Source: a virus
Taxonomy: Duplodnaviria > Caudoviricetes
Strand: one strand, 5' to 3'
Length of the DNA stretch: 34,371 nucleotides
IMG/VR virus record: IMGVR_UViG_3300022670_000465
Coordinates: 1 to 34,371 of that record
Under the pieces are notes generated by a model that searched no databases, had not been told where the DNA came from, and was given only the letters and a program-made list of their open reading frames with translations. Of the stretch, positions 2,716 to 21,550 are shown piece by piece; position 1 is the first letter of the stretch, and the number at the start of each line of letters is the position of its first letter. Made by a program: the position numbers and the translations under genes.

Positions 2716-2954
2716 TGCCCTCTTCGCGGTCAGCCAAAGAGATCTGCCGCGAGGATCCGCATGGCATCTCCTGCAAGGTAGCAACGAAGCGCGAGGCGCG
2801 ACGTAAGCGCCGCGAGGAGGAGTACGGCGAAGCGCCGGCACCCAAGCCACCGCCAAAGAAGCCAGAGAAAAAGAAGCCAACGAAGCCAGCTACCCAGCGC
2901 CGCAAGTATCTCGAAGAGAAGATCCGCGAGGCCGAGGGCGGCAAGCCAAGCTGA
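2715..2954 (+). CDS. Hypothetical basic protein
   Basis: GGAG RBS, TAGTG coupling; K/P/E-rich. Confidence 0.6.
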   Translation: MPSSRSAKEICREDPHGISCKVATKREARRKRREEEYGEAPAPKPPPKKPEKKKPTKPATQRRKYLEEKIREAEGGKPS

Positions 2955-2997
2955 ACGAGACGCGAACGAAACACGAACGAGAAACGAACGGTCGTTC
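2953..2997. repeat. 11-bp-period direct repeat array (GAACGA(G/A)A..C) ending in the inverted repeat GAAC-GGTC-GTTC
   Basis: GAACGAGACGC / GAACGAAACAC / GAACGAGAAAC / GAACG followed by GTCGTTC. Confidence 0.8.
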
Positions 2998-3018
2998 AAG
3001 TCCAGACGAGGTCACGAC

Positions 3019-3402
3019 ATGAAGAGACGAGGATTCCTGAAGCGCCTAGCCGGCGTAGCCACTGCAGCTGTAATTAGCGAGAAGCTCATTCCTGATGACG
3101 GTGTGGCGCTGGGCAGCATGAAGCATCCGGTCCTGCTGCACGATGCCGCGCATCATGACCTGACCGAAGGCTTCGGCCTGGCGCAGGCAAAGGTCGAGGG
3201 CAGCACCATGCTCTACGACGAACTGGCTGCACCTGATCTCACCGAGGCATCGCTCGAGCAGGCGTGCATCGAAATCAAGAAGCGCGGCGGTATCATGACC
3301 AGGGCCGAGTTCTCTGAGCAGCTGGCCGATGGCCTGAATAAAGCATTCAAGGACGTGTACGCAGAGTACGAGCCTGGCGGCTGGGACGATGACAACGCAT
3401 GA
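3019..3402 (+). CDS. Twin-arginine-signal protein made of shuffled major-capsid-like segments
   Basis: GAGG RBS; MKRRGFLKRLAGVATAAV N-terminus; four blocks match MCP aa 138-148, 52-69, 164-177 and 3-27. Confidence 0.85.
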   Translation: MKRRGFLKRLAGVATAAVISEKLIPDDGVALGSMKHPVLLHDAAHHDLTEGFGLAQAKVEGSTMLYDELAAPDLTEASLEQACIEIKKRGGIMTRAEFSEQLADGLNKAFKDVYAEYEPGGWDDDNA

Positions 3403-3508
3403 CGAGCGACCGCCGGCACTAGCGGGGATCCCCCTGCGCACGTGGCTCATGTTGGTGATAGGCATGATCTTGGTCTGGGTAGCGCTGGGCTACCTGGTGC
3501 TTGGGTGA
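3389..3508 (+). CDS. 39-aa membrane peptide (not in ORF track)
   Basis: MTTHDERPPALAGIPLRTWLMLVIGMILVWVALGYLVLG; overlaps both neighbours (GTGA junction at 3505-3508). Confidence 0.55.
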   Translation: MTTHDERPPALAGIPLRTWLMLVIGMILVWVALGYLVLG

Positions 3509-3963
3509 ATCCGAAGCTGCTTGGTACCGTGACGACTCCAAAAGTGCTGATATACGTTGACGACGGGCACATCGACGTCATGCATACACGTGGCGTCGAG
3601 GTCGCTGTGATCGTTGAGGGGGAGGACGTAGAGATCCCTGACGACTGGCGCGGACTCATGGGCAGGCAGCATCATTCGCTCCCAATCACCGTAAATCGGG
3701 CAGAATTGCCTCAAAAGCGGGCACTACAGTGCGATTCTACGTCACTCGCGGCACCCAACACCCAAGTACATCACTCTACGGCACGTAATGGAGGGATGAA
3801 AGCGCCGTATTGCTATGACTGCGATGGCAACCATCCAGTCAGCATAGGCTGCGATGGCCTGCCGAAGACCTGCAGCTGCTGCGGTGCGAGCTACGGACAG
3901 TTGCACAGCACTGGCTGCGCTGACCAGAACCCGCTCGCCGAAGGCGGGAACATAGTGCAGTGA
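3505..3963 (+). CDS. Hypothetical protein with C-terminal Cys/His Zn-binding region
   Basis: GTG start coupled to the previous stop; CYDC...H...C and CSCC...H...C motifs. Confidence 0.55.
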   Translation: MNPKLLGTVTTPKVLIYVDDGHIDVMHTRGVEVAVIVEGEDVEIPDDWRGLMGRQHHSLPITVNRAELPQKRALQCDSTSLAAPNTQVHHSTARNGGMKAPYCYDCDGNHPVSIGCDGLPKTCSCCGASYGQLHSTGCADQNPLAEGGNIVQ

Positions 3964-4157
3964 ACTGGCTCAAGGTTGTCGTGGTCTATTACATCCTGGT
4001 CTACCTATTGATCGGCCGTATCGCCGTCGACGTTTTCGACCTGGTCACCTGGGGGAATATGATCGGCTTATTCTTTGGTTGTTGTATCGGCCATTACTTG
4101 GGTAAAATAGACAGCGGTGGGTTACAGGTAGGCAGCGGTAGGAGCCGGAAAGCGTGA
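3960..4157 (+). CDS. Small membrane protein
   Basis: GTGA overlap; two hydrophobic stretches. Confidence 0.55.
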   Translation: MNWLKVVVVYYILVYLLIGRIAVDVFDLVTWGNMIGLFFGCCIGHYLGKIDSGGLQVGSGRSRKA

Positions 4158-4176
4158 AGCGGACCACAGGAATACG

Positions 4177-4353
4177 ATGGAAGTACGAGGCAACGATCAG
4201 CGCAGGGCTGAGCTAAGCGAACTGAGCAAGCTGCTCGGAGGGTACGATATTGTCATCGACAACGAGATTCCGGAGGACGAGATCCACGTCATCGAAAAGC
4301 TCAACGGTGGTCTGCCGGCCAAGCAGGTCGTCTACCTCGACGAGTGTGCCTGA
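4177..4353 (+). CDS. 58-aa hypothetical protein (not in ORF track)
   Basis: AGGA RBS; MEVRGNDQRRAELSELSKLLGGYDIVIDNEIPEDEIHVIE...; GC3-rich codons. Confidence 0.55.
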   Translation: MEVRGNDQRRAELSELSKLLGGYDIVIDNEIPEDEIHVIEKLNGGLPAKQVVYLDECA

Positions 4354-4456
4354 GCGATACCAGTACGGGTGGCGGGATCCGCGGATCATGTCGCAGGAGG
4401 AACTCAAAAGCTGGTGGATGAGATCCATGCTCGATTGCGCCAGGCTCCAGCTGTGA
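4346..4456 (+). CDS. 36-aa peptide beginning with an MCP C-terminus-like motif
   Basis: MPERYQYGWRDPRIMSQEELKSWW...; overlaps both neighbours; same frame as ORF-track 4250..4456. Confidence 0.45.
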   Translation: MPERYQYGWRDPRIMSQEELKSWWMRSMLDCARLQL

Positions 4457-4644
4457 ACGCCATCAACGAATTGCCGTCGATCGACTACAGTGACCTGATC
4501 GAGAAGTGGGGCGGTCAGCGCGTCGAAAAGACGATGATCTTCATCGAGCTATCGGAGGATGCCCGCGGTCTGCTGGTCAGCATTCCCTGCACGCAAGAGC
4601 GAGTCGAAGCGGTCCTCGAGGCCGTGTATGGTGAGTACGAATAG
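4453..4644 (+). CDS. Hypothetical protein
   Basis: GTGA coupling; MNAINELPSIDYSDLIEKWGG... Confidence 0.55.
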   Translation: MNAINELPSIDYSDLIEKWGGQRVEKTMIFIELSEDARGLLVSIPCTQERVEAVLEAVYGEYE

Positions 4645-4648
4645 GCCG

Positions 4649-4936
4649 ATGCCAAGAATGGCACTGGGTCCGGTTGAGAACGCACGAGTTGAGATTGGAG
4701 GGGAAATCATGGCTGACGATTTAACATGGATCCGGGTGACCGATCGCTTACCGGCCTTCGGCGACAAGGTGATGGTGACCAGAGACACTGGTGGTCCCAG
4801 GCGGTTGGTCGAGCAGGCGTCACGCAAATGCATCGACTCCCGCGGCGAGGTCTGGGATGCCGCCGACCGGAATTCAGAACTGACTGACGTGATTGCCTGG
4901 GCACTGATTCCGAACGCGGCAGCAGCGAACCCATGA
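4649..4936 (+). CDS. DUF551-like protein (core from ATG 4709) with in-frame N-terminal LGPVENARVE extension
   Basis: WIRVTDRLP...VMV...W...V.AW..IP pattern; GGAGGG RBS before 4709. Confidence 0.65.
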   Translation: MPRMALGPVENARVEIGGEIMADDLTWIRVTDRLPAFGDKVMVTRDTGGPRRLVEQASRKCIDSRGEVWDAADRNSELTDVIAWALIPNAAAANP

Positions 4937-5142
4937 AGGCTTACATCGGCACGAAGATCGTCCAGGCAGAGCCTGAAGAAAAGCGCAGCGACCTGGCCAC
5001 CGGTCGTGTCATTGAGCAGGGCTACAAAGTCGTGTACGAGGATGGATACACATCCTGGTCGCCGAAGGATGTCTTCGAGCGCTGCTATCGCGAAGTGACA
5101 GAGGACGAGTACGAGCTTGTTTCCACCGGAGATGAATCATGA
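4933..5142 (+). CDS. YIGTK/GYxSWSP-family small phage protein
   Basis: MKAYIGTKIVQAEP...GYKVVYEDGYTSWSPKDVFERCY. Confidence 0.8.
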   Translation: MKAYIGTKIVQAEPEEKRSDLATGRVIEQGYKVVYEDGYTSWSPKDVFERCYREVTEDEYELVSTGDES

Positions 5143-5780
5143 TCAGTTACGGAGACCGCGATAAGCGGATGCTTGAACGATGGACAGACTGGCGCCGCCG
5201 GCTACGAGCGCCCAGCTGGGTGCCGATGCTGATGTATGCCGGCGTGATCATCATGGCGCTGCTGTTGTCCATGCAGGCCAAAGCTGGCGAGGCAACGCTG
5301 TCCTGGACGGCGCCGACGCAGAACACGGATGGATCGGCGCTGACTGACCTGGCCGGCTTCAAGATCTACGCCGGCCTCGTGCAAGGTGGACCGTACGGAG
5401 ACGTCAGCATCACGATCAACAATCCGACGACGACGACATTCGTGGTGCCAGGCCTCGCCGAGGGGACAACGTACTTTTTCGTAACGACGGCATTCAATAG
5501 CGCGAACCCGGTGCAGGAGAGCGACTTCAGCAACGAGGTCAGCAAACTCATTCCGCCGCTGGTCCCGGCGCCGCCGACCATGCTGACAGTGCAGAATCTG
5601 CTGGTCTGGGATGTCCTCAAGGAGGATGATCACTTCAAGTTCCTGGGTGTTGGCACGGTGCCAGGCGGCACTGCGTGTGATCCAACACAGACCGTGAACG
5701 GCAGGTATGTGGTGCCTAACGATCTGGTGGAATGGTTCGGCAACGTCCAGCCGCCAGTGGTGGTCGCCGACTGTTCATGA
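5139..5780 (+). CDS. Exported fibronectin type III-like protein
   Basis: Hydrophobic segment ending QAKA/GE; ATLSWTAP...GFKIY...GLAEGTTYFFVTTAFN...ESDFSNEV. Confidence 0.8.
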   Translation: MISYGDRDKRMLERWTDWRRRLRAPSWVPMLMYAGVIIMALLLSMQAKAGEATLSWTAPTQNTDGSALTDLAGFKIYAGLVQGGPYGDVSITINNPTTTTFVVPGLAEGTTYFFVTTAFNSANPVQESDFSNEVSKLIPPLVPAPPTMLTVQNLLVWDVLKEDDHFKFLGVGTVPGGTACDPTQTVNGRYVVPNDLVEWFGNVQPPVVVADCS

Positions 5781-5893
5781 GATGGTGGCGTCGATTACGG
5801 GCCTGGCTATGTCGAAGGTTCGGATGGTTTTGCAAGAAGGATCCGCTGGGTCCTGTGGAGAATGCGAGGGTTGAGGTTTCTAATGCGGGCTGA
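5777..5893 (+). CDS. 38-aa Trp/Arg-rich peptide with LGPVENARVE motif (not in ORF track)
   Basis: ATGA coupling; MRWWRRLRAWLCRRFGWFCKKDPLGPVENARVEVSNAG. Confidence 0.6.
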   Translation: MRWWRRLRAWLCRRFGWFCKKDPLGPVENARVEVSNAG

Positions 5894-5911
5894 TCCCGCA
5901 AGGAGCGAAAG

Positions 5912-6070
5912 ATGGACGAGAAAAAGAGGGAAGATCGAGGCGTAGCATTGAATGAAGCCGCAAGGCATCGGCTGGCAAACGAGGATGCCGATGCAGTGGT
6001 CAGCAACGCGGAGAAATACTTCAAGTTTCTGCAAGGCGATGGAGAGAGCGATGACGACAGCGACAGCTAA
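5912..6070 (+). CDS. 52-aa hypothetical protein (not in ORF track)
   Basis: AAGGAG RBS; MDEKKREDRGVALNEAA...VVSNAEKYFKFLQG. Confidence 0.65.
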   Translation: MDEKKREDRGVALNEAARHRLANEDADAVVSNAEKYFKFLQGDGESDDDSDS

Positions 6071-6368
6071 GTGGGGAATACCAACGAAGCGGCAGAGCGG
6101 CTTGCCGGCGGATCCTGCAGACTACAAGGGCTGCGAGATTGCGCTGGCGGTTGCCGGCGGCCCGTTCACTGTACTGTCGGCCTTGGTGCCGGCTGACACG
6201 TTCGAGCGGGTGATGCCGCCTGACCTGACGCCGGGTGATTACCTGTGCCGATACGTGCCGATCGATATAGACGATGTCCGCGGCAAGGCGACCGCGGTGC
6301 CGTTCAAGATCGCAGACGAGACGCCGCTGGATGTGGTCGACAATCCGACGGTAGAGATCAGCCCGTGA
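6051..6368 (+). CDS. Second FN3-like protein, no signal peptide
   Basis: GGAGAG RBS; TATAKWGIPTKRQSG...DYKGCEI...DLTPGDYLCRY aligns with the 5139 protein. Confidence 0.6.
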   Translation: MTTATAKWGIPTKRQSGLPADPADYKGCEIALAVAGGPFTVLSALVPADTFERVMPPDLTPGDYLCRYVPIDIDDVRGKATAVPFKIADETPLDVVDNPTVEISP

Positions 6369-6688
6369 ACGCGCTGAAGTGGGCAATCATAGCGGCGCTG
6401 GTGCTGGTCGCATCGCTGGTGATAACTTACCTGCAGCACGACGATCACTGGAGCATGGTGTACGAGGCGATCCAGACGCCCGAGCAACCGGGTGGACAGA
6501 AGCGCTTCGTGCTATTCAATGAGGACGGGCTGACGCTGCAGGCCTGCACTGACCTGTACGACGAGCACTTGCGCCGGCTGAACAACAACGGCGCGGTGAT
6601 CGAGTATGAGATCCAGTGCGAGCACCTGATGACCAAGGGCCACGGCTATCTCTTCCAGTATCAGAACCAGTGGCTGATAGGCCCATGA
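6365..6688 (+). CDS. Membrane-anchored hypothetical protein
   Basis: GTGA coupling; N-terminal WAIIAALVLVASLVITYL. Confidence 0.7.
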   Translation: MNALKWAIIAALVLVASLVITYLQHDDHWSMVYEAIQTPEQPGGQKRFVLFNEDGLTLQACTDLYDEHLRRLNNNGAVIEYEIQCEHLMTKGHGYLFQYQNQWLIGP

Positions 6689-7092
6689 TCACACCGATGC
6701 CTGACAAGAAAGAGCCACTAGCGCAGCCGCTGATCGATTACTGCGAAGAGCATTTCGATTGCGAGCTTGGACCGCCGCGGGCGTTCTTCGAGCTTCCGCA
6801 ACGCGAAGGCAAAGATCCGGTGCGTGTGATCTATCACGTGTACGCGGTTCAGGGTCCGACGTACGAGGACTGCGAGGCATGGCTGCTCGAGCACGTGTTC
6901 GAGCCGCTGCAGCAGCGAGCCGGCGACGAGGCGCGGCTGTACTGGAGAAGCGAAGACAAGATCTCGGTCGAGCCGATGCGTGACCGGGTGAAGGTTCGCA
7001 CGCGCTTGGCCGTGCTCAAAAAGATAGAGCAGGTGATCCTCGAGGAGCAGGTCATACGCGAAGGCACGCCGTGTCCGAGCACCGAGCCGTGA
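6685..7092 (+). CDS. Hypothetical protein
   Basis: ATGA coupling; GC3-rich. Confidence 0.7.
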   Translation: MITPMPDKKEPLAQPLIDYCEEHFDCELGPPRAFFELPQREGKDPVRVIYHVYAVQGPTYEDCEAWLLEHVFEPLQQRAGDEARLYWRSEDKISVEPMRDRVKVRTRLAVLKKIEQVILEEQVIREGTPCPSTEP

Positions 7093-7277
7093 ACATACCG
7101 GCCATCAGTGGTCACTGCACTCGAGGCCGAGCGCTCGAGTATGATAGCGTGATGCTGTTCACTGCCTATGGTCGCAGTTTTGCTGTGGTCGGATCTTATG
7201 ATGGCGCTGAGTGGGGGCTGTTCCTGGTGGTCAGCGATGAAGAATACGATGACTGGGCGAATCACTTTTGCAGATGA
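7089..7277 (+). CDS. Hypothetical protein
   Basis: GTGA and ATGA coupling at both ends. Confidence 0.5.
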   Translation: MNIPAISGHCTRGRALEYDSVMLFTAYGRSFAVVGSYDGAEWGLFLVVSDEEYDDWANHFCR

Positions 7278-7567
7278 AGAGACGCACATTCATTTTGGGC
7301 GCGGTCGCTGCTGCGGTCAGCGCCGCTCTGCCGGCACTGCCGAGCTACGAGTACAAGACGTATCGCATGGCCTTCAACTTCACACGCGAAACGGTCGGCA
7401 GGAATGAGTATTCTGAGATCGGTGATCGAATGGCTAAGGCGCTGGCCAGGTCGATGATGCAGACCAAGGAGCGAGTCATCGCGGACACGTTGAACCAGAT
7501 GTTTCCAGATTCGGGCGAGGGCGCACGGAGATCGGTCGGGGTCGAGGGCAGTCCTGATCGTATTTAA
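7274..7567 (+). CDS. Twin-arginine-signal protein carrying an MCP-homologous segment
   Basis: MKRRTFILGAVAAAVSAALP; aa 25-77 align without gaps to MCP aa 78-130. Confidence 0.85.
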   Translation: MKRRTFILGAVAAAVSAALPALPSYEYKTYRMAFNFTRETVGRNEYSEIGDRMAKALARSMMQTKERVIADTLNQMFPDSGEGARRSVGVEGSPDRI

Positions 7568-9174
7568 TGATGGCAATGAGCTTGTCGCATCAGCAGGCGA
7601 CCTTCACAGAGATGGAGGCCGAATGGCTGCGTCGAGATCTCAGGCGCTATGTGCCGGCGGTCTGGCCGCTGGTCGAATCCAGGGAGTTCAAAAACAACTG
7701 GCACATTGATGCCATCTGCGACCACCTGGCGTACGTCACGCTGGGAGACATCCGCAACCTGATCATCAACGTACCGCCGCGGCAAACGAAGTCGCTGACG
7801 GTCTCGGTCATCTGGCCTACCTGGTGGTGGGCCGAGGAACCCGAGATCCAGTTCATGTACGCCAGCTACTCGCATGACCTGGCGCTGCGTGATGCGGTCA
7901 AGGCCAGGGACATCATCCAGTCGGGCTGGTACCAGGAACGCTACGGCGGCAAGTTCTACCTGGATCCCGGGCAGAATCAGAAGGCCCGCTACGTCAACGA
8001 CAAGCACGGCTATCGGATCTCGACGTCCTGCCTCGGCAAGACCACGGGCGAAGGCGGCGACGTGCTGTGCATCGATGACCCGCACAACATGGCAGACGTG
8101 CACTCGGATCCGAAGCGCCACTCCACCCTCAGCTGGTACGACAACAGCTGGCGGTCACGTCTTAATGACCCAACCACAGGCCAGAAGGTCATCATCTGTC
8201 AGCGGTCTCACGACATGGACCTGGTCGGGCATATCCTCGACGGCGAAGCCGGCCGCTGGGTAGTGCTGATGCTGCCGAATGAGTACGACACGAAGCGCCA
8301 CTGCCGGACGTTCATCAATCCGAAGGGCCGCGATCTTGACTACAAGGAAATGCTCGAGAAGAAGGTCGAGCCGCTGTACGAGGACCAGCGCACGAAACCT
8401 CGAGACCTGCTCAATCCGCAGCGCTTTGGTGACGAGGAGACCAAGACCGAGAAGGCCGGCATGGGCACGGTCGACTACGAGGCCCAGTACAACCAGGACC
8501 CGGAGGCCGGCGGCGGTCTGATCCTGAAGCGCAAGTGGTGGCAGAACTGGGCGTACCCGCCGAACCACCCGAAGCAGGGCGAGCAGATGCCATACCCTGA
8601 GTGGGAGCAGATCATTTCGGTCTACGACACTGCGTTCAAGAAAGGCCAGGAGAACGATTACTCAGCGCGCACCAGCTGGGGACTGTTCTGGCATTCGATC
8701 ACCGGCCGCAAGGAAGACAACTGCCTCAACGCGATGCTGCTCGAGCGCATGAATGAGCGGATGGAGTTCGGCGAGCTTCGCGAGGCAGCGATCCGGCACG
8801 AGAAGGGCTGGGATCCGGACCACACGCTGATCGAAGACAAGGCCTCCGGCATCAGCCTGATCCAGGAGTTCGAGGCCGGCGGCATCCCGGTGTGGAAAGT
8901 GAAGGCGGGACCTGAGGACCTGGCGTATCGAGCGCACATGGTCTCGGGGATCCTGCGTGCCGGCAGGATCTGGTACGTCTCGAGGGACTGGGCGTTCGAC
9001 GTCATCAGCCAGTGCGCCAAGTTCCCGCTGGTCGAGCATGACGACCTGGTCGCCACCTGCGTGATCGCCTGGGCGTTCATGCGGCGGATGGGCGACATGG
9101 AGCTACCGGACGACGAGAAGGCCAACGAACTTGCGCTCTGGACCAGGCCGAAGCCCAAGTCGCCATATGGCTAA
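7567..9174 (+). CDS. terL: Terminase large subunit
   Basis: Walker A-like NVPPRQTKS, Walker B LCIDDPH, QYNQDP, nuclease motifs YDTA..DYSA, IEDKASG and HDDLV. Confidence 0.97.
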   Translation: MMAMSLSHQQATFTEMEAEWLRRDLRRYVPAVWPLVESREFKNNWHIDAICDHLAYVTLGDIRNLIINVPPRQTKSLTVSVIWPTWWWAEEPEIQFMYASYSHDLALRDAVKARDIIQSGWYQERYGGKFYLDPGQNQKARYVNDKHGYRISTSCLGKTTGEGGDVLCIDDPHNMADVHSDPKRHSTLSWYDNSWRSRLNDPTTGQKVIICQRSHDMDLVGHILDGEAGRWVVLMLPNEYDTKRHCRTFINPKGRDLDYKEMLEKKVEPLYEDQRTKPRDLLNPQRFGDEETKTEKAGMGTVDYEAQYNQDPEAGGGLILKRKWWQNWAYPPNHPKQGEQMPYPEWEQIISVYDTAFKKGQENDYSARTSWGLFWHSITGRKEDNCLNAMLLERMNERMEFGELREAAIRHEKGWDPDHTLIEDKASGISLIQEFEAGGIPVWKVKAGPEDLAYRAHMVSGILRAGRIWYVSRDWAFDVISQCAKFPLVEHDDLVATCVIAWAFMRRMGDMELPDDEKANELALWTRPKPKSPYG

Positions 9175-9613
9175 TCGAGCGAGCTACGATTTCCTGGTGC
9201 TCGATGTACCGACAATCGGAGAGCGGAAGTTCGTTAAATATCGGCGAGGTCCCTGCGGGGTCAATTCGCGATTGCGTCGGCGGTTCGGACTAGAAATGGT
9301 TCTGATCAAGGCTGAGGACTTTGAGGCTGGATGGTCTATTGATGCAGGGTATATCCCAGAAGACTTGTCGACGGGCAGAAGAGCCAGGAACGTAGAGGTA
9401 TCGGACCATCGATTCGAACGGTTTGAAAAGTTCCTTGCTGAGAATGGAGCCATCGAAACCGCCAATGTAGGCATCCATGCAGGTGGGCATATCGGCGTTA
9501 GGGATGGTCGCCACAGGACTCGCGTACTGTTGAATCTGGGAATGGAAGCCATACCAGTGACCATGACAAAGGAATCTGTGGATCTTTTCGAGCGGTACCG
9601 CGAACTATTGTGA
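9167..9613 (+). CDS. ParB/Sulfiredoxin-fold protein (Osa/fertility-inhibition-like)
   Basis: DGRHR motif followed by VLLNLGMEAIPV; visibly more AT-rich than its flanks. Confidence 0.6.
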   Translation: MANRASYDFLVLDVPTIGERKFVKYRRGPCGVNSRLRRRFGLEMVLIKAEDFEAGWSIDAGYIPEDLSTGRRARNVEVSDHRFERFEKFLAENGAIETANVGIHAGGHIGVRDGRHRTRVLLNLGMEAIPVTMTKESVDLFERYRELL

Positions 9614-9770: not shown

Positions 9771-10082
9771 ATGAAAATTGGCCTGGTCAAGAACTGGGAC
9801 GGCCCGCGGAGACGATTCGTTTATCTCTTCACGCCGGGCGACAATGACTCGCTCGAAATCATCGAGCTTGAACACGAGAGAGATTTTCAAGAAGGCCTGC
9901 CATGCAATCGTGAGCTTCACGAATTGCCTGCCGAGGTAGCGGCCGAGATCAATATCTCGATGGGCGGCGCCGGCATGCTGGCGCTGAAGCCGAACTGGTG
10001 GGGCAGGCGTAAGGCCAGCTTCTGGCTCTTCAAGAATCGCTGGCACCTGCGCTGGATTAAGCTGACGCGAAAGCCGGTATGA
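9771..10082 (+). CDS. Hypothetical protein
   Basis: GAGG RBS; ATGA coupling downstream. Confidence 0.65.
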   Translation: MKIGLVKNWDGPRRRFVYLFTPGDNDSLEIIELEHERDFQEGLPCNRELHELPAEVAAEINISMGGAGMLALKPNWWGRRKASFWLFKNRWHLRWIKLTRKPV

Positions 10083-12492: not shown

Positions 12493-12714
12493 ATGAGCAC
12501 GATCTACTACTGTGACGCTGCAAGCTGCAACAAGAAAGAACCTGGCCGACCATCTAGCTCTGGCTGGGCACCGCCAGACGGCTGGTCGACTTTCGCGCAA
12601 GGAATGGACGTCGTCGACGCCTGCAGCCCGGAGCATCAGGAGGCGATCGAAGCCGCCAATACGCCTGAAGAGGAACCCGAAGAGGAAGCCGAGGCTGAGG
12701 CCGAAGAGAGTTGA
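12493..12714 (+). CDS. Small Cys-containing protein with acidic tail
   Basis: AAGGAG RBS; CDAASC...PPDGW...DACSPEH. Confidence 0.7.
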   Translation: MSTIYYCDAASCNKKEPGRPSSSGWAPPDGWSTFAQGMDVVDACSPEHQEAIEAANTPEEEPEEEAEAEAEES

Positions 12715-13178
12715 GTCGGCTGGTCCTGTGGCCTGACCCGCGACTGCGTGAGATCTGCGCGGAAGTGCGGGAGGACACGGACTGCAGCGAGATCATCGAT
12801 GCCCTGATCGAGGTGAAGGAAGAGCATCACGGCCTGGGCATCGCGGCTCCGCAGATCGGCGCGATGGTCCGCATCATCGTCGTCGAAGATTTGATCGTCA
12901 TCAATCCGCGCATCGTGAAGCGCTCCCAGCAAAGGCGTTGGGTCTGGGAGGGCTGTCTGTCATTCCCCGAGACCTTGCCGAAGTACGCCCAGGACATGGG
13001 TATGGTGCGCGATGGCGATCGAGTGCGCGTGCGCCGGCACAAGCGGATCCAGGTCGAAGGCTTTGACCGCAACTGGAAACCGTTCACAGCGAGAGGACGC
13101 GATTGGAAAGGCGCGTGCCTTGAACATGAGATCGAACATCTCGACGGCATCACGTTGAACGATCACCGTAGACGATAG
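12711..13178 (+). CDS. def: Peptide deformylase
   Basis: All three PDF motifs: GLGIAAPQIG, EGCLS, HEIEHLDG. Confidence 0.96.
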   Translation: MSRLVLWPDPRLREICAEVREDTDCSEIIDALIEVKEEHHGLGIAAPQIGAMVRIIVVEDLIVINPRIVKRSQQRRWVWEGCLSFPETLPKYAQDMGMVRDGDRVRVRRHKRIQVEGFDRNWKPFTARGRDWKGACLEHEIEHLDGITLNDHRRR

Positions 13179-13180
13179 AT

Positions 13181-13210
13181 TTGCTGCAGTACATTGCGTG
13201 CGTGTACACT
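13181..13210 (+). promoter_or_regulatory. Possible sigma70-type promoter for the head operon
   Basis: TTGCTG-18 nt-TACACT upstream of the portal RBS. Confidence 0.3.
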
Positions 13211-13239
13211 TCGCGAAACCGGTGCGGAGGGCGACCGCG

Positions 13240-15789
13240 ATGGCGCGTGAAGAACAGGTTGGCTCTTTTGTCGAAGAGCTACCAGCGACAACCCCTAAAG
13301 TTCAACGGGCGGGCAATGGCGCGCTAGTCACCCAGCAGGGTGAAGACACCATTGTCGACCTGAATCCTGCAACCGACACCGAACCATTCGAAGCACCCGA
13401 GATGGATCCGGACTGGCATGCGAATCTCGCTGACCAGTTGACGCCCACTAATCGCCACGCTATCGCCGACCAGCTGCTCGAGTACGTGGAACTCGACAAG
13501 CAGGTCCGCGAGCACCATTTCCGCCGCATCAAAGATGGCCTTGAGCTTCTCGGTCTCAAAGACCTTCCGGAATCTGACACTCCGTTCGACGGCGCTGCTT
13601 CCGTTACGGACCCGCTAATTGGCGAGGCAGTCGTGCAGTTCCAGTCGCGAGCGATCGAGGAGCTTTTTCCTGCCGATGGCCCAGTGAAGTCCTCTATCCT
13701 GGGCGAGGTCACCCAGGAGAAGGAAGAGCAAGCCGAGCGCCTCGAGGACTACATGAATTACCAGCTGACGGTCGAGGACCAGGGTTACTTCTGGGACGTC
13801 GATCAGATGCTGTTCTACCTGCCGATGTCAGGCTCGGCGTTCAAGAAAGTTTACATCGATCCGGTCACCGAGATGACCACCAGCCGCTACGTGACGGCCG
13901 AAGATTTCATCGTGCCGTACTACTGCAAGGACCTGAAGTCAGCCACCAGGTACGCGCACGAGTACACGATGGAGGGCAACAACATCAAGCGCGCCCAGGT
14001 CGACGGGCAGTTCCTGGCAGATGCATTCCTGATTCCCAGCCCGCAGATCATGTCGGACAAGAATGTCAGCTTCACCGACGAGAATATGGAGGACGTCGCC
14101 GACGATCGCGTGCCGATCGTTCACGAGGACGACGAGGTCTACAAGCTCTACGAGTACCACATCGATTACGAGATGCCGTTCAAGGATCCGGAGATCGGTG
14201 AGAACGATACCGACATCGCATGCCCGTACATCGTCACCATCGAGGAGGAGAGCCGTGAGGTCCTATCAGTCCGGCGCAACTGGAAGAAAGGCGACGAGAA
14301 ATACCGCAAGCGACTCTGGTTCTCGCACTACAAGTTCCTGCCAGGCCTCGGCTTCTACGGATTCGGCTACCTTCATATCATCGGTGCACTGGCGAAAGCT
14401 GCTTCAGGATCTCTGCGAGCGATCCTCGATACTGCGGCCCTGTCTAATCTCCCAGGTGGATTCAAGAGCAAGAAAGCCAAGATAAGCGGCGAGCACCGCT
14501 TCACGCTGGGTGAGTTCCGCGACGTCGATATGTCTCCTGAGGACCTGCAGCAAGCATTCCTGCCGCTGCCAGTCAACGAGCCAAGCCCAGCCCTGGCCAC
14601 TACCTACGAGAACCTGATCCAGCGCGGCAAGGAATTCATGGGCACGATAGAAGTGCTCACTGGCGGCGCCGACAACCGCGGACCCGTCGGCACTACGCTG
14701 GCGCTGATCGAGCAAGCCGGCAAGCCACAGTCAGCCATCCACAAGCGCCTGCACAAGGCGATGCGCGAAGAGTTGACGATGATGGCGCAGCTGAACTACG
14801 AGCTAATGGATCGGGACGAGTACCCGTACGAGCTTGGCGGCGAGAGCAAGGTAGTACTGAAGCAGGACTTCGACGGTCGCGTCGACGTCATCCCGGTATC
14901 GGATCCAAACATTTTCTCGAGCGTGCAGCGCATCGCCCAGTCGCAAGGCGTGCTCGAGCTTGTCGAGTCGGCGCCGGAGATGTACGGCGAGAAGGGACGC
15001 AAAGAAGCTCACCGCCGCATGCTGGCAGCGCTCAAGGTGCCGGAGGTTGACAAGCTACTGCCGGAGGAAACAACGCCGAAGAACCTGGATCCGGTCAGCG
15101 AGAATCAGATGATGGCCACCGGCCTGCCGGTGCAGGTGCGGACAACGCAGGACGACGAGTCGCACATCGCGGTGCACCAGGAGTTCGCCGAGATGATGGC
15201 GATCGGCGATCCGGATCTGTGGAAGCAGGTCGAGCCGGTGTTCATGTCACACAAGATGGAGCACCTGGTCAGCCAGTACCGCAAGGATGTCGAGCAGATG
15301 CTGGGCATGGAACTGCCGCCGTTCGATCTGTACGACGAGGCCGAGACCGAGGACTTGCCACCCGAGATCGAGACCATGCTTAGCCAGGCCATCGCTGCCA
15401 AGCAGCGCCAGGCGAAGCAGGAGAAGGAAGCTGCCGAGGGCGGCCCACCGCTCTCACCGGAAGAGGCCGAGGTCAAAGCGATCGAGGATGCCAAGGATGC
15501 CGAGACTATCGGCAAGCTCGAGCGCATGAAGGCCGAGCACCAGGAGAAGCAACGCCAGGCTGCCGAAGAGCATGCGCAGCAGATGACGCAAAAGCAGGAG
15601 GCATTCACTGCAGAGGAGACACGCAAAGATACCGAAAACGAAGCCGACATCGAGCGCGAGAAGAAGCTCGGTGCGGCTAAACGAGCAGCCCTGGTGAGCG
15701 CGCCGGCAAGCAGGTCACGGACACCGGAACGCGAGACCAACAGGCCGCCACCGAAGAAGAAGGCCGATGGCGGCGCCGACGCCCGCTGA
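13240..15789 (+). CDS. Portal protein
   Basis: GGAGG RBS; HANLA...GLELLG...PFDGA.SV..P.I.EA..QFQ..A..EL.PA.GPVK, GSAFKKVY.D, YKFLPGLGFYG.G, PVGTTLALIE, DFDGRVDVIPVSDPN; position after terL. Confidence 0.92.
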   Translation: MAREEQVGSFVEELPATTPKVQRAGNGALVTQQGEDTIVDLNPATDTEPFEAPEMDPDWHANLADQLTPTNRHAIADQLLEYVELDKQVREHHFRRIKDGLELLGLKDLPESDTPFDGAASVTDPLIGEAVVQFQSRAIEELFPADGPVKSSILGEVTQEKEEQAERLEDYMNYQLTVEDQGYFWDVDQMLFYLPMSGSAFKKVYIDPVTEMTTSRYVTAEDFIVPYYCKDLKSATRYAHEYTMEGNNIKRAQVDGQFLADAFLIPSPQIMSDKNVSFTDENMEDVADDRVPIVHEDDEVYKLYEYHIDYEMPFKDPEIGENDTDIACPYIVTIEEESREVLSVRRNWKKGDEKYRKRLWFSHYKFLPGLGFYGFGYLHIIGALAKAASGSLRAILDTAALSNLPGGFKSKKAKISGEHRFTLGEFRDVDMSPEDLQQAFLPLPVNEPSPALATTYENLIQRGKEFMGTIEVLTGGADNRGPVGTTLALIEQAGKPQSAIHKRLHKAMREELTMMAQLNYELMDRDEYPYELGGESKVVLKQDFDGRVDVIPVSDPNIFSSVQRIAQSQGVLELVESAPEMYGEKGRKEAHRRMLAALKVPEVDKLLPEETTPKNLDPVSENQMMATGLPVQVRTTQDDESHIAVHQEFAEMMAIGDPDLWKQVEPVFMSHKMEHLVSQYRKDVEQMLGMELPPFDLYDEAETEDLPPEIETMLSQAIAAKQRQAKQEKEAAEGGPPLSPEEAEVKAIEDAKDAETIGKLERMKAEHQEKQRQAAEEHAQQMTQKQEAFTAEETRKDTENEADIEREKKLGAAKRAALVSAPASRSRTPERETNRPPPKKKADGGADAR

Positions 15790-16522: not shown

Positions 16523-16720
16523 TTGAACAAACGGCAAATTCTGAATCGCATCGATGAAAAAGTCTCAGATGCCCACGACGCAATGGACACCGGGCTACCC
16601 GACGAAAAGTACAACCGCAAGGTTGGCGAAGTCGGCGCGCTCAAGGATCTACGTGATTTTGTCGTGGAACTCTCGGATGACGATGCCGATGATGATGAAC
16701 TGGAGGAACTACGAGCATGA
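16523..16720 (+). CDS. Small conserved head-module protein
   Basis: Y.RKVGEVGAL motif; ATGA-coupled to the GroES-like gene. Confidence 0.65.
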   Translation: MNKRQILNRIDEKVSDAHDAMDTGLPDEKYNRKVGEVGALKDLRDFVVELSDDDADDDELEELRA

Positions 16721-17235
16721 CCGAAACCGCTGAACGAGTCGTTGACCTGGTCGTCGCATCAGACACGAAAGCTAAGGCAGCTAATGCCAAATACGATGAA
16801 ATCGAAGCATGGTGCGCAGATCAAAGACGATGGCAAGTTCGGCTGCGGAATTTTTTGCGGCCCTGGCATACACCGCGGGCGCCGCACGTTCCGTTCAGAC
16901 CTTTGTACTGGCGATGCCTTGTCATGATTCGCGAACCAGACGAGACCACCGAGTGGGGGTTTCAACTGATGCGCGAGAGCATAGACATCGAATCGTATCT
17001 AACGTACGTGGGGATGGTGGTTGCGGTCGGCAAGCTCGCTTACAAGGCGAAGACTCGCTCAGGGCTTAAGCTCAGCGACGAGGACAATCCGAAGCTAGGC
17101 GACAAGGTAGTGTTCTACAAGAACGCCGGCACTCGTTTTCGAACGATTGACGGCATGCAGTTCGTACAAATCACCGACACCGAAATGTGGGGCGAGACAG
17201 ATCAGCCGGAGAGACTCGATACGTTAGCGATCTAA
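16717..17235 (+). CDS. GroES-like co-chaperonin
   Basis: RPLYWRCLV...ETTEWGF.L...GMVVAVG...KLGDKVVF.KNAGT...ITDTEM follows the Cpn10 pattern. Confidence 0.8.
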   Translation: MTETAERVVDLVVASDTKAKAANAKYDEIEAWCADQRRWQVRLRNFLRPWHTPRAPHVPFRPLYWRCLVMIREPDETTEWGFQLMRESIDIESYLTYVGMVVAVGKLAYKAKTRSGLKLSDEDNPKLGDKVVFYKNAGTRFRTIDGMQFVQITDTEMWGETDQPERLDTLAI

Positions 17236-19744: not shown

Positions 19745-20659
19745 ATGGCTATGAATCGCGCTGACTTTAGAAAGCAGCTACAGGAAGGGCTGAACACGGT
19801 GTTCGGCATGGAGTACGCACGCTACCCAGAAGAGTGGAAATATCTTTTCGCAATCGAACGGTCGGTCAAGGCCTTCGAGGAAGATGTCCTGCTCGCTGGC
19901 TTCGACGCAGCACCGGTCAAGCCTGAAGGGGAGGGTGTCGCGTACGACGAGGGGGCAGAGAGTTACGTTGCCCGATATACGCATGAGACGATCGCATTGG
20001 CTTTCTCAATAACCGAGGAAGCTGAAGAGGACGGCTTATACGGCTCTATCGGTAGCAAGTACGCTCGAGCGCTCGCTCGCTCACTACAACAGACCAAAGA
20101 AGTTAAGGGCGCTGACGTCCTGAATAACGGCTTCGACGCTACCTTCCCAGGTGGCGACGGCGTGCCGCTGTTCAGTGCATCACATCCGCAGTTCGGCGGT
20201 GGCGTCCAGGCTAACACCCTGGCAGTCGCAGCTGATCTGTCCGAGGCTTCATTGGAGCAGGCAGCCATTGACATCTCTGAGTTTGACGATGACCGGGGAA
20301 TCCCGATCGCCTGTCAGATCAAGAAGATGGCAGTGCCGACGCAACTGCAGTTCGTGGCAACACGCATCCTGCAGTCGCCGTATCGCACGGGAACGGGCGA
20401 TAACGACATCAATGCAATCAACACGTTGGGAACTGTTGCTGATGGATTCTGTGTAAATCACCGATTTACCGATCCAGATGCTTGGTTTCTTTTAACGGAT
20501 TGCCCTGATGGGCTGAAGCATTTTGTGCGCAAGAACGTGCAGCGAGGAATCGAGGGCGACTTCGAGACCGGCAACCTGCGCTACAAGGCACGAGAGCGCT
20601 ACAGCTACGGCTTTTCTGACTGGCGTGGAGCTTACGGTTCACCAGGAGGTGGCACCTAA
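19745..20659 (+). CDS. Major capsid protein (HK97-like fold inferred)
   Basis: MAMNRADFRKQLQEGLNTVFGMEY, RYTHETIALAFSITEEA.ED, ALARS..QTK, GDFETGN.RYKARERYS.G..D.R; size and position. Confidence 0.93.
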   Translation: MAMNRADFRKQLQEGLNTVFGMEYARYPEEWKYLFAIERSVKAFEEDVLLAGFDAAPVKPEGEGVAYDEGAESYVARYTHETIALAFSITEEAEEDGLYGSIGSKYARALARSLQQTKEVKGADVLNNGFDATFPGGDGVPLFSASHPQFGGGVQANTLAVAADLSEASLEQAAIDISEFDDDRGIPIACQIKKMAVPTQLQFVATRILQSPYRTGTGDNDINAINTLGTVADGFCVNHRFTDPDAWFLLTDCPDGLKHFVRKNVQRGIEGDFETGNLRYKARERYSYGFSDWRGAYGSPGGGT

Positions 20660-20766: not shown

Positions 20767-21525
20767 ATGAGTAAACATACACTTTCCCATGCGTCACAAA
20801 TACTGGCCGGCGACGGCGTTGCCTTTAATCTCGGTGATGTCATTTTCGGGATGGGCGACGAGCTTGCGAACAGCTTGCGAGGAATACGCATTGCCATCCT
20901 GGTCACCGAATTTTTCGATCCTGGCAGCGTCGGCAATGCAATAGTTGCGGCCTCCCAGACACCAGCGGCTGGAACAGCAGACCAGGATCTGCTGATCAAC
21001 GGTACTGGTGTTGTCGATGGTGTTGGTATTTTGAGTTTTTGCGGTCGTGTGTCGATCACTGCGGCTGCCAACGAATCGGCAAGAACTTTCACGATTCTCG
21101 GTCGTGATGCCAACGGCAGACCACAGGCCGAAGAAATCGCTGGGCCGAACACGACCACGAGCGAGGGTGTTAAGCATTTCACCAAGATTGATCGCGTCAT
21201 CGTCGATGCCGATACAGCCGGTGTCGTGTCTGTCGGTCAACTGTCAAGCGGACCTCGTGGTCTGAGAAGGAAAGCGTTGGTCTTCCCAGACGGCGACCGC
21301 GCCCGAACCCACTTTGGTGTCGAGGGTAGTAGCCTCCAGCCTTCTGGCAGTTACAGTCCCGGCAGTTCAACTGTACAGACAGCGACGAACGATGATCAGC
21401 GAGCGGAGTATCAGCCTGTCTCCCTCACTCAAACGACCGAGGTAACGTATCTCGCGGATCTCAGCAAAGAGGGACTCGGCGAGAACTTCACTGACTCGAG
21501 ACAGCGCGTACCGTCAGCCATCTAA
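20767..21525 (+). CDS. Virion structural protein
   Basis: AAGGAGG RBS; beta-rich; shares a domain with the next gene. Confidence 0.7.
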   Translation: MSKHTLSHASQILAGDGVAFNLGDVIFGMGDELANSLRGIRIAILVTEFFDPGSVGNAIVAASQTPAAGTADQDLLINGTGVVDGVGILSFCGRVSITAAANESARTFTILGRDANGRPQAEEIAGPNTTTSEGVKHFTKIDRVIVDADTAGVVSVGQLSSGPRGLRRKALVFPDGDRARTHFGVEGSSLQPSGSYSPGSSTVQTATNDDQRAEYQPVSLTQTTEVTYLADLSKEGLGENFTDSRQRVPSAI

Positions 21526-21550
21526 TCACAGCGAATAGGAGGGCCGAATC

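Follow-up and report, generated by a model that had tools for sequence, protein, structure and literature searches.

Several bacterial immune systems detect capsid proteins, which leave a phage little room for mutation. Lit, for instance, reads a linear or unfolded epitope, the Gol peptide of phage T4, and the assembly of the shell is itself a target of satellites or of dominant-negative viral fragments, as illustrated by Cpm of the phage-inducible chromosomal islands (PICI), P4 Sid, TcaP of the PICI-like elements (PLE) and Fv1. Among the defenses that sense the major capsid protein (MCP), a recent preprint includes Avs7, Avs8 and Avs10, and describes how Avs7 envelops the folded MCP, burying 3,700 square angstroms and relying on shape complementarity and not on single contacts (bioRxiv 10.64898/2026.01.04.697583). 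CapRel-SJ46 is a further MCP-sensing defense, according to another report (PMC13728456), Thoeris is also listed in this group, and both MCP and portal have been named among the triggers of STAND sensors. A precedent for sequestering a capsid-triggered system at the membrane is the F exclusion of T7, in which FxsA sequesters PifA (PMC8125068). In this work, we analyze a 34,371-nucleotide stretch of DNA (the window), 34 kb of the genome of an uncultured tailed phage from sediment, deposited as IMG/VR record IMGVR_UViG_3300022670_000465, in which two small open reading frames (ORFs), A and B, join a leader resembling those used for twin-arginine translocation (Tat) to scrambled pieces of the MCP.

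A first reading of the letters of the window (from now on, the sequence-only reading) had called attention to these ORFs, which lie where it had placed them and whose twin-arginine motifs, RRGFLK in A and RRTFIL in B, occupy residues 3–8 (Table 1). Its claim that both carry segments homologous to the MCP, and that these do not overlap on it, was borne out by tblastn of the MCP against the window, by shuffling and by profile comparison. In the tblastn search, residues 25–77 of ORF B aligned without gaps to MCP residues 78–130 (45% identity, E value 2.5e-8), and ORF A aligned through residues 93–122 to MCP 3–31 (E 0.002), through residues 27–88 to MCP 138–179 (E 0.016) and through residues 51–68 to MCP 52–69 (E 0.44 when taken alone). 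The best local score was equalled by none of 2000 shuffles for B, and by 2 and 4 of 2000 for A. When a profile of the MCP family was used and the top segments were summed, none of 1000 shuffles reached the score of A, of B or of ORF C, a third ORF with an MCP motif that the earlier reading had not included; the profile scores (34.5, 33.8 and 25.6 bits) compare with a peak of 16.1 in the reversed six-frame window. In addition, ORF B matches PF25209 (E 0.0015). The DNA identity to the MCP gene at third codon positions is low (0.28–0.64), and this divergence implies that the likeness to the MCP has been kept at the protein level.

The MCP segments in ORF A follow a scrambled order (138–148, 52–69, 163–179 and 3–27). 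Throughout the mosaics the pieces measure 11–53 residues and most of the A-domain is missing. The structural names given to them (N-arm, E-loop, strand, spine helix, loop, A-domain helix and last strand) are putative, and the assignment to elements of the fold is one that we take to follow from the secondary structure of the MCP model and from general knowledge of the HK97 fold. The predicted model of ORF A shows no fold (predicted local distance difference test, pLDDT, 57; predicted template modeling score, pTM, 0.22), and the Atlas model of ORF B has a pTM of 0.25; for A the ESM Atlas contained only unnamed viral clusters, and for B nothing usable. Compared with an HK97 capsid subunit, in which complete P-domain, A-domain, E-loop and N-arm appear in order and folded, these proteins are made of permuted fragments. 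The segment LHDAAHHD of ORF A (3136–3162) is identical at the amino acid level in four orthologues and is exchanged between mosaics as modules are, and no source for it was found among ten related genomes.

ORFs A and B are members of a large family. Homology searches retained 55 of 85 candidates for ORF B and 47 of 62 for ORF A (each including the window's own cluster), and the ORF B profile reached 232 clusters at 50% identity, some of the 150 listed being true MCPs or MCP fragments. When the leader-bearing set was defined as proteins of up to 200 residues with RRxF within the first 25, it comprised 229 distinct proteins, and 217 of them contained MCP modules, in 24 arrangements, compared with 4 of 1145 shuffles; homologues pairing the leader with MCP pieces, as anticipated by the sequence-only reading, are therefore numerous. 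Modules move between A-type and B-type proteins, and because they occur in any order and A has no predicted fold, they act as independent linear units. The MCP region 185–270, which the queries lacked, is almost never used (one case, L097). Members of the family are named only “hypothetical protein”, and Pfam, PHROGs and NCBIfam hold no family for the mosaic proteins.

The distribution is patchy and the genes are optional. In ten further phage records, seven matched the ORF B profile through the MCP alone; G018 has a leader-plus-helix gene, G019 a bare helix module of 44 residues and G002 leaders. The same profile matched five of five prokaryote genomes, as well as the cultured relatives, through the MCP alone, and for ORF B none of the 174 stretches from prokaryote genomes was a confirmed match; the MCP family does occur in mixed, probably misbinned contigs of metagenome-assembled genomes. 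G003 has A, yet only the tail of B. Where A and B co-occur, their pieces do not overlap on the MCP in the window, in its relative G001 (68.6 kb, 99% complete), in G004, L003, L004 or L041, genomes that are related and do not represent independent cases. An origin of the modules in the P0190-type MCP subfamily was considered and rejected, as it fits the E module only and no twin-arginine ORF was found within 10 kb in the 80 loci of this subfamily.

The leader is among the most constrained parts of these proteins, with a twin-arginine motif of the type (S/T)RRxFLK. The pattern [RK][RK]xF appears within the first 16 residues in 95 of 100 homologues, and in all 95 it reads RR, never KR or RK; in 139 further matches, RRxF was found in 106, RK or KR in three, and neither in 28, the latter including true MCPs and fragments. 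The moderately hydrophobic h-region averages 14 residues (11–16), with a mean hydropathy of 1.7–1.8, and among the 229 leader-bearing proteins an AxA c-region is present in 38 and a lipobox in none. ORF A scores 14.3 bits on TIGR01409, below the cut-off of 16.7, and ORF B has no NCBIfam match at E 0.1; at that threshold, TIGR01409 is matched by 38 of 47 (A) and 33 of 55 (B) family members, and the cut-off of PF10518 is passed by one of 22 further proteins. With these Tat signals (TIGR01409 and PF10518) the leaders share R3, R4, F6, I/L7, K8 and a helix up to about residue 20, in the same register as the MdoD signal bound to TatBC (PMC13323110). Judging from these features, the leader resembles a Tat leader that probably escapes cleavage in many cases. 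Its derivation from the N-terminus of the MCP was not supported, given that the score (22) is at chance level.

Freedom from constraint, which in the sequence-only reading would have marked decaying duplicates, is not what the genes show. Counting estimates of the ratio of nonsynonymous to synonymous rates (dN/dS), made with four A orthologues (6 pairs) and seven B genes (21 pairs), are about 0.3–0.6: 0.27–0.55 for A and 0.29–0.99 for B, with 17 of the 21 pairs at 0.39–0.62. The corresponding ratio of proportions of differences (pN/pS) is 0.23 and 0.16 in the leaders of A and B, 0.14–0.63 in the A modules and 0.50 in the B helix. Between the window and G001, dN/dS amounts to 0.32 for A, 0.42 for B, 0.03 for the MCP and 0.15–0.39 for seven neighbors in the island; the MCPs are 98.7% identical (dN 0.009), compared with 79% for A and 46% for B, and such fast turnover against a static MCP would suit a changing partner. 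Conservation in the modules tracks that of the MCP (rho 0.48, 109 positions), the MCP residue being kept at 41 of 51 MCP-conserved positions versus 17 of 58 others, a relation that is partly circular because the homologues were found by similarity. Variants of ORF B from other samples have fixed breakpoints, one where the leader ends (7334) and one in the helix core (7439–7471), a pattern expected of module exchange.

Concerning whose capsid the pieces resemble, the own MCP of 11 mosaics ranked 2, 2, 3, 4, 6, 6, 8, 19, 28, 36 and 54 among 103 non-redundant MCPs, that is, within the top eight in seven of the 11, and from these similarities the modules appear to lean towards their own lineage, albeit not strictly. 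A leaderless ORF of G002 matches the MCP gene of the same genome at 33 of 36 nucleotides, and its sequence marks it as an apparent recent capture from that gene. Other cargo exists: a twin-arginine ORF of G002 contains a portal piece (E about 0.02, with the top six matches falling on the same portal stretch) and the MCP C-terminal motif, and P0176 carries a tail-fiber or virion piece (E 2e-4). The 68-residue ORF at 9798–10004 of L082 has this type of leader together with portal and MCP C-terminal motifs. Pieces of P22 coat, terminase and tail nozzle in further twin-arginine ORFs (L098, L041 and L086) were not supported, and profiles of terL, portal and adaptor detected no short ORFs among 14,739, the nine matches of g19133 being full-length and filtered out. 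Leaderless ORFs in G002, G004 and L004 combine MCP end motifs with a hydrophobic C-terminal segment, and several twin-arginine ORFs in the same islands have no recognizable MCP cargo. A separate family of leader-bearing proteins of 150–200 residues, with no clear MCP cargo, also occupies these islands (L082 8923–9423, L041 1889–2494, L089 2529–2978 and L060), and gave one weak match (E 0.4) to a 300-residue protein that may be a scaffold.

The explanation that we tentatively favor is that A and B are membrane-tethered decoys, which would bind the immune sensors with which the host detects virion proteins, yet not set them off. They are likely produced with the late genes, since the ORF B stop overlaps the terL start. 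The leader would hold them at the host membrane, plausibly by binding TatBC, because it agrees with the solved MdoD signal in motif and in helix length, and tethering may be the common purpose given that in some relatives a hydrophobic segment at the C-terminus takes its place. Mosaics may have arisen by repeated recombination from virion genes, and the cargo would engage the sensors that read virion proteins and leave them inactive. Cargo other than MCP (portal and tail fiber) was counted for this reading, as these pieces in relatives would fit a panel of sensors. Also counted for it were the selection on leader and cargo, the agreement of module and MCP conservation, the many arrangements, the fast turnover, the lean towards the own capsid, the leaderless ORFs with a hydrophobic C-terminal segment and the precedent of FxsA and PifA. 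Considering that Avs7 reads a folded shape, decoys of this kind would require sensors that recognize linear or unfolded epitopes. A more elaborate version, which we regard as doubtful, would be a modular display platform in which a Tat-targeting leader plus shuffled capsid, portal and tail epitopes, captured by recombination, bait immune sensors and pin them at the Tat translocase or push them through it; if true, it would represent a new class of anti-defense, and its cargo would map the virion epitopes that bacteria read. Decoys that tether or export sensors were already the suggestion of the sequence-only reading, of which one part stands, a family of Tat-leader proteins with MCP pieces that is real, under selection, widespread and apparently not yet described, and the other, their export, binding and function, is only proposed.

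Several points weigh against decoys. Scrambled peptides are poor mimics of the folded MCP that Avs7 envelops, and the lack of a predicted fold in ORF A weakens the proposal; a mimic of the trigger could activate the sensor instead of blocking it, and completed Tat export would put the cargo beyond cytoplasmic sensors. No host was found for the phage, so the presence of Tat or of a sensor in it is only presumed. The own MCP is only 19th, 28th, 36th and 54th of 103 for four of the 11 mosaics; for the E module of ORF A it ranks 72 of 103, other subfamilies fitting better; and in a smaller pool of 30 MCPs its ranks span 1–24, with 15–24 for four of the 11. Because the genomes compared are related, these rankings are not independent cases. 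Selection on A and B is moderate, like that on the neighboring accessory genes, and the B strand (S module) gives a pN/pS of 1.08, in a region where the alignment is poor. Finally, a peptide that binds the MCP would keep the same conserved residues.

The last point leads to the main alternative, itself rather unlikely, in which it is the MCP that the modules bind, every piece taking the place that its counterpart occupies in the fold or the shell, and the leader drags captured subunits to Tat, so that the heads of co-infecting relatives are poisoned (as the sequence-only reading also contemplated) or misfolded or free MCP is cleared, which could hide it from sensors. If one partner offered many binding sites, this would account for the retention of MCP-invariant residues by seven distant elements whatever their order. 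The lack of overlap between A and B on the MCP, in the window as in the co-occurring pairs, and the better fit of some modules to MCP subfamilies other than their own agree with this; moreover, Tat can co-export bound partners as hitchhikers. However, B is coupled to terL and likely made together with its own MCP, to which the modules lean, and this coupling and lean mean that an MCP poison would hit the phage itself; the tail-fiber pieces are also left unexplained. A role in lysogen immunity is not supported, since no integrase was found among the 30 G001 proteins scanned. As for the recruitment of the phage's own procapsids to the membrane, raised by the sequence-only reading, it is unlikely because most searched phages of this MCP family are without the genes and because an MCP that remains 99% identical is accompanied by changing modules.

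It is improbable, in our estimation, that the leader is all that matters, with small Tat-engaging peptides jamming or modulating the translocase or the membrane, and the cargo being filler from nearby virion genes, kept as amphipathic. That the leader is among the most constrained parts and that leader ORFs without recognizable cargo share the islands would agree with this, as would the RecT and RecE-like proteins encoded by G001, the bias of detection towards cargo that still resembles MCP, and the observation in one study that Tat substrates which are unfolded and expose hydrophobic stretches become stuck at a late stage and slow growth (PMC13673990). Yet the cargo retains MCP-invariant Gly, Asp, His, Pro, Lys and Glu despite the deletion of intervening stretches, and MCP-motif ORFs also occur without a leader. 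Quite improbable in our view is that the peptides are fully exported from the cytoplasm, for example for superinfection exclusion or as capsid-derived cell–cell signals: the c-region is as scarce as described above, no lipobox exists, the cargo has amphipathic helices and, to our knowledge, capsid-assembly elements have no periplasmic partner. Very little credence is left for decaying partial MCP duplicates, or for a membrane anchor needed for prohead assembly of the phage itself, in spite of the homology to the own MCP and of one recent copy at the DNA level. With dN/dS below 1, unbroken frames in hundreds of members, orthologues, diverged third codon positions, and so many phage and prokaryote genomes, together with all cultured relatives, matched by the MCP alone, this last option is largely refuted by the selection, family and arrangement data.

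Table 1. Positions of the mosaic ORFs, their modules and the associated genes in the window.
Feature	Positions	Strand	Remarks
ORF A, 127 residues, twin-arginine leader plus four scrambled MCP modules	3019..3402	+	GAGG 7 nucleotides before start
ORF A leader (RRGFLK) with Ala/Val-rich h-region, lacking AxA c-region and lipobox	3019..3084	+	
Module G, MCP 138–148, loop after long helix	3097..3129	+	in ORF A
Module E, MCP 52–69, putative E-loop	3169..3222	+	in ORF A
Module A, MCP 163–179, helix 167–178 of model	3232..3282	+	in ORF A
Module N, MCP 3–27, putative N-arm helix	3295..3369	+	in ORF A; own MCP rank 1 of 103
ORF C, 36 residues, GTG start, leaderless; residues 3–13 = MCP 284–294 (C-terminal motif)	4346..4456	+	
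ORF B, 97 residues, twin-arginine leader plus MCP 78–130	7274..7567	+	
ORF B leader, RRTFIL, h-region ending in conserved Pro20	7274..7333	+	
Modules S and H, MCP 78–130, strand plus putative spine helix 99–127	7346..7504	+	in ORF B
Conserved RNA hairpin, last codons of ORF B, just before terL start	7533..7560	+	
Terminase large subunit (terL)	7567..9174	+	right edge of accessory island
Major capsid protein (MCP), HK97 fold, HTVC023P-type-related heads	19745..20659	+	source family of modules

The three ORFs occupy the region between the terminase genes. In G001, terS sits just upstream of the point that matches the start of the window, so that the small genes among which A and B lie form an island flanked by terS and terL, and ORF C lies there as well. 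The second half of ORF C is common to syntenic ORFs whose first half differs. This first half is swappable: it is the MCP C-terminal motif in the window and L003, and in the counterparts from G001, G004 (21335–21550) and L004 (4744–4986) it weakly resembles the Walker B region of terminase. A terminase origin of this alternative half is a lead only, as terL 159–199 aligned in three of five ORFs at E 11 or worse, and PHROG terL at E 0.29. The start of ORF B overlaps the upstream stop and its own stop the terL ATG. The RNA hairpin that precedes terL is conserved in 12 of the sequences examined, shows paired changes in those of G004 and L007 and is also present in G003, which is without B; it accounts for the conserved tail of ORF B, which is not MCP-derived protein, and it may control terL translation. 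A promoter scan stayed at chance level. In one X19 contig a B-like gene is connected to terL, contigs showing neither strand nor transcription, and four RNA-labelled runs yielded contigs of relatives only.

In the rest of the window, terL, portal (13198–15789), a GroES-like gene, MCP and tail genes were recognized. The MCP, whose predicted model shows the HK97 fold, was assigned to PF25209 and phrog_371; its nearest cultured relatives are those of Roseobacter CRP-901/902, DSL-LC04 and Pelagibacter HTVC023P (54–58%), and the PDB holds no sequence relative. The DNA of the window is present in sediment metagenomes from several studies, and the assembly of run X4 matches positions 2900–5422 with one difference and 5433–7700 with two, so the locus is not an assembly artifact. 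G001 also codes for a replication initiator and RusA, and for a protein of 3293 residues (L120 10049–19930) that has weak similarity to endolysins and probably serves as an ejected core protein. A phage peptide deformylase and the GroES-like co-chaperonin (12711–13178 and 16717–17235) adjoin the head genes. The island also contains a fibronectin-type-III protein with an N-terminal hydrophobic segment, kept in relatives (5139–5780 and 5952–6368), this stretch being the best covered in two RNA-labelled runs, which is no proof of expression. Between terL and portal, 9131–9613 weakly matches PF22162, the plasmid fertility inhibition factor family (E 5.5e-4).

Hundreds of genes that keep invariant capsid motifs, in any order, behind an export signal would point to a new form of counter-defense or of interference between phages. 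The family offers small, cheap constructs and a natural list of the virion epitopes that matter, as well as an apparent instance of a phage drawing on the Tat pathway and a clear example of genes newly assembled from fragments of older ones. No description of Tat-leader capsid mosaics was found in the literature searched, which comprised few subscription papers and no supplements, in line with the sequence-only reading, which knew of no such family; a 2026 Tat review makes no mention of phage-encoded substrates in its phage-related passages.

All these features can be set against the known systems. The HK97-fold MCP is the source of all modules, but the mosaics hold permuted pieces, have no fold and cannot build a shell. 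Tat signals share the motif and the helix, although the mosaic leaders are phage-encoded and mostly miss the c-region and cleavage site, and the usual passenger, a folded enzyme, is replaced by a short mosaic predicted to be unfolded. The MCP-sensing defenses have among their triggers MCP and portal, both present as mosaic cargo, yet they are host sensors, and no capsid-derived phage decoy against them was found in the literature searched. FxsA is similar in that a membrane protein retains at the membrane, and so neutralizes, a suicide system triggered by capsid, and differs in being host-encoded, with neither capsid homology nor a Tat leader. Finally, Cpm, Sid, TcaP and Fv1 act on or resemble capsid subunits and restrict another virus, but they are folded, lack an export leader and are not mosaics of short motifs.

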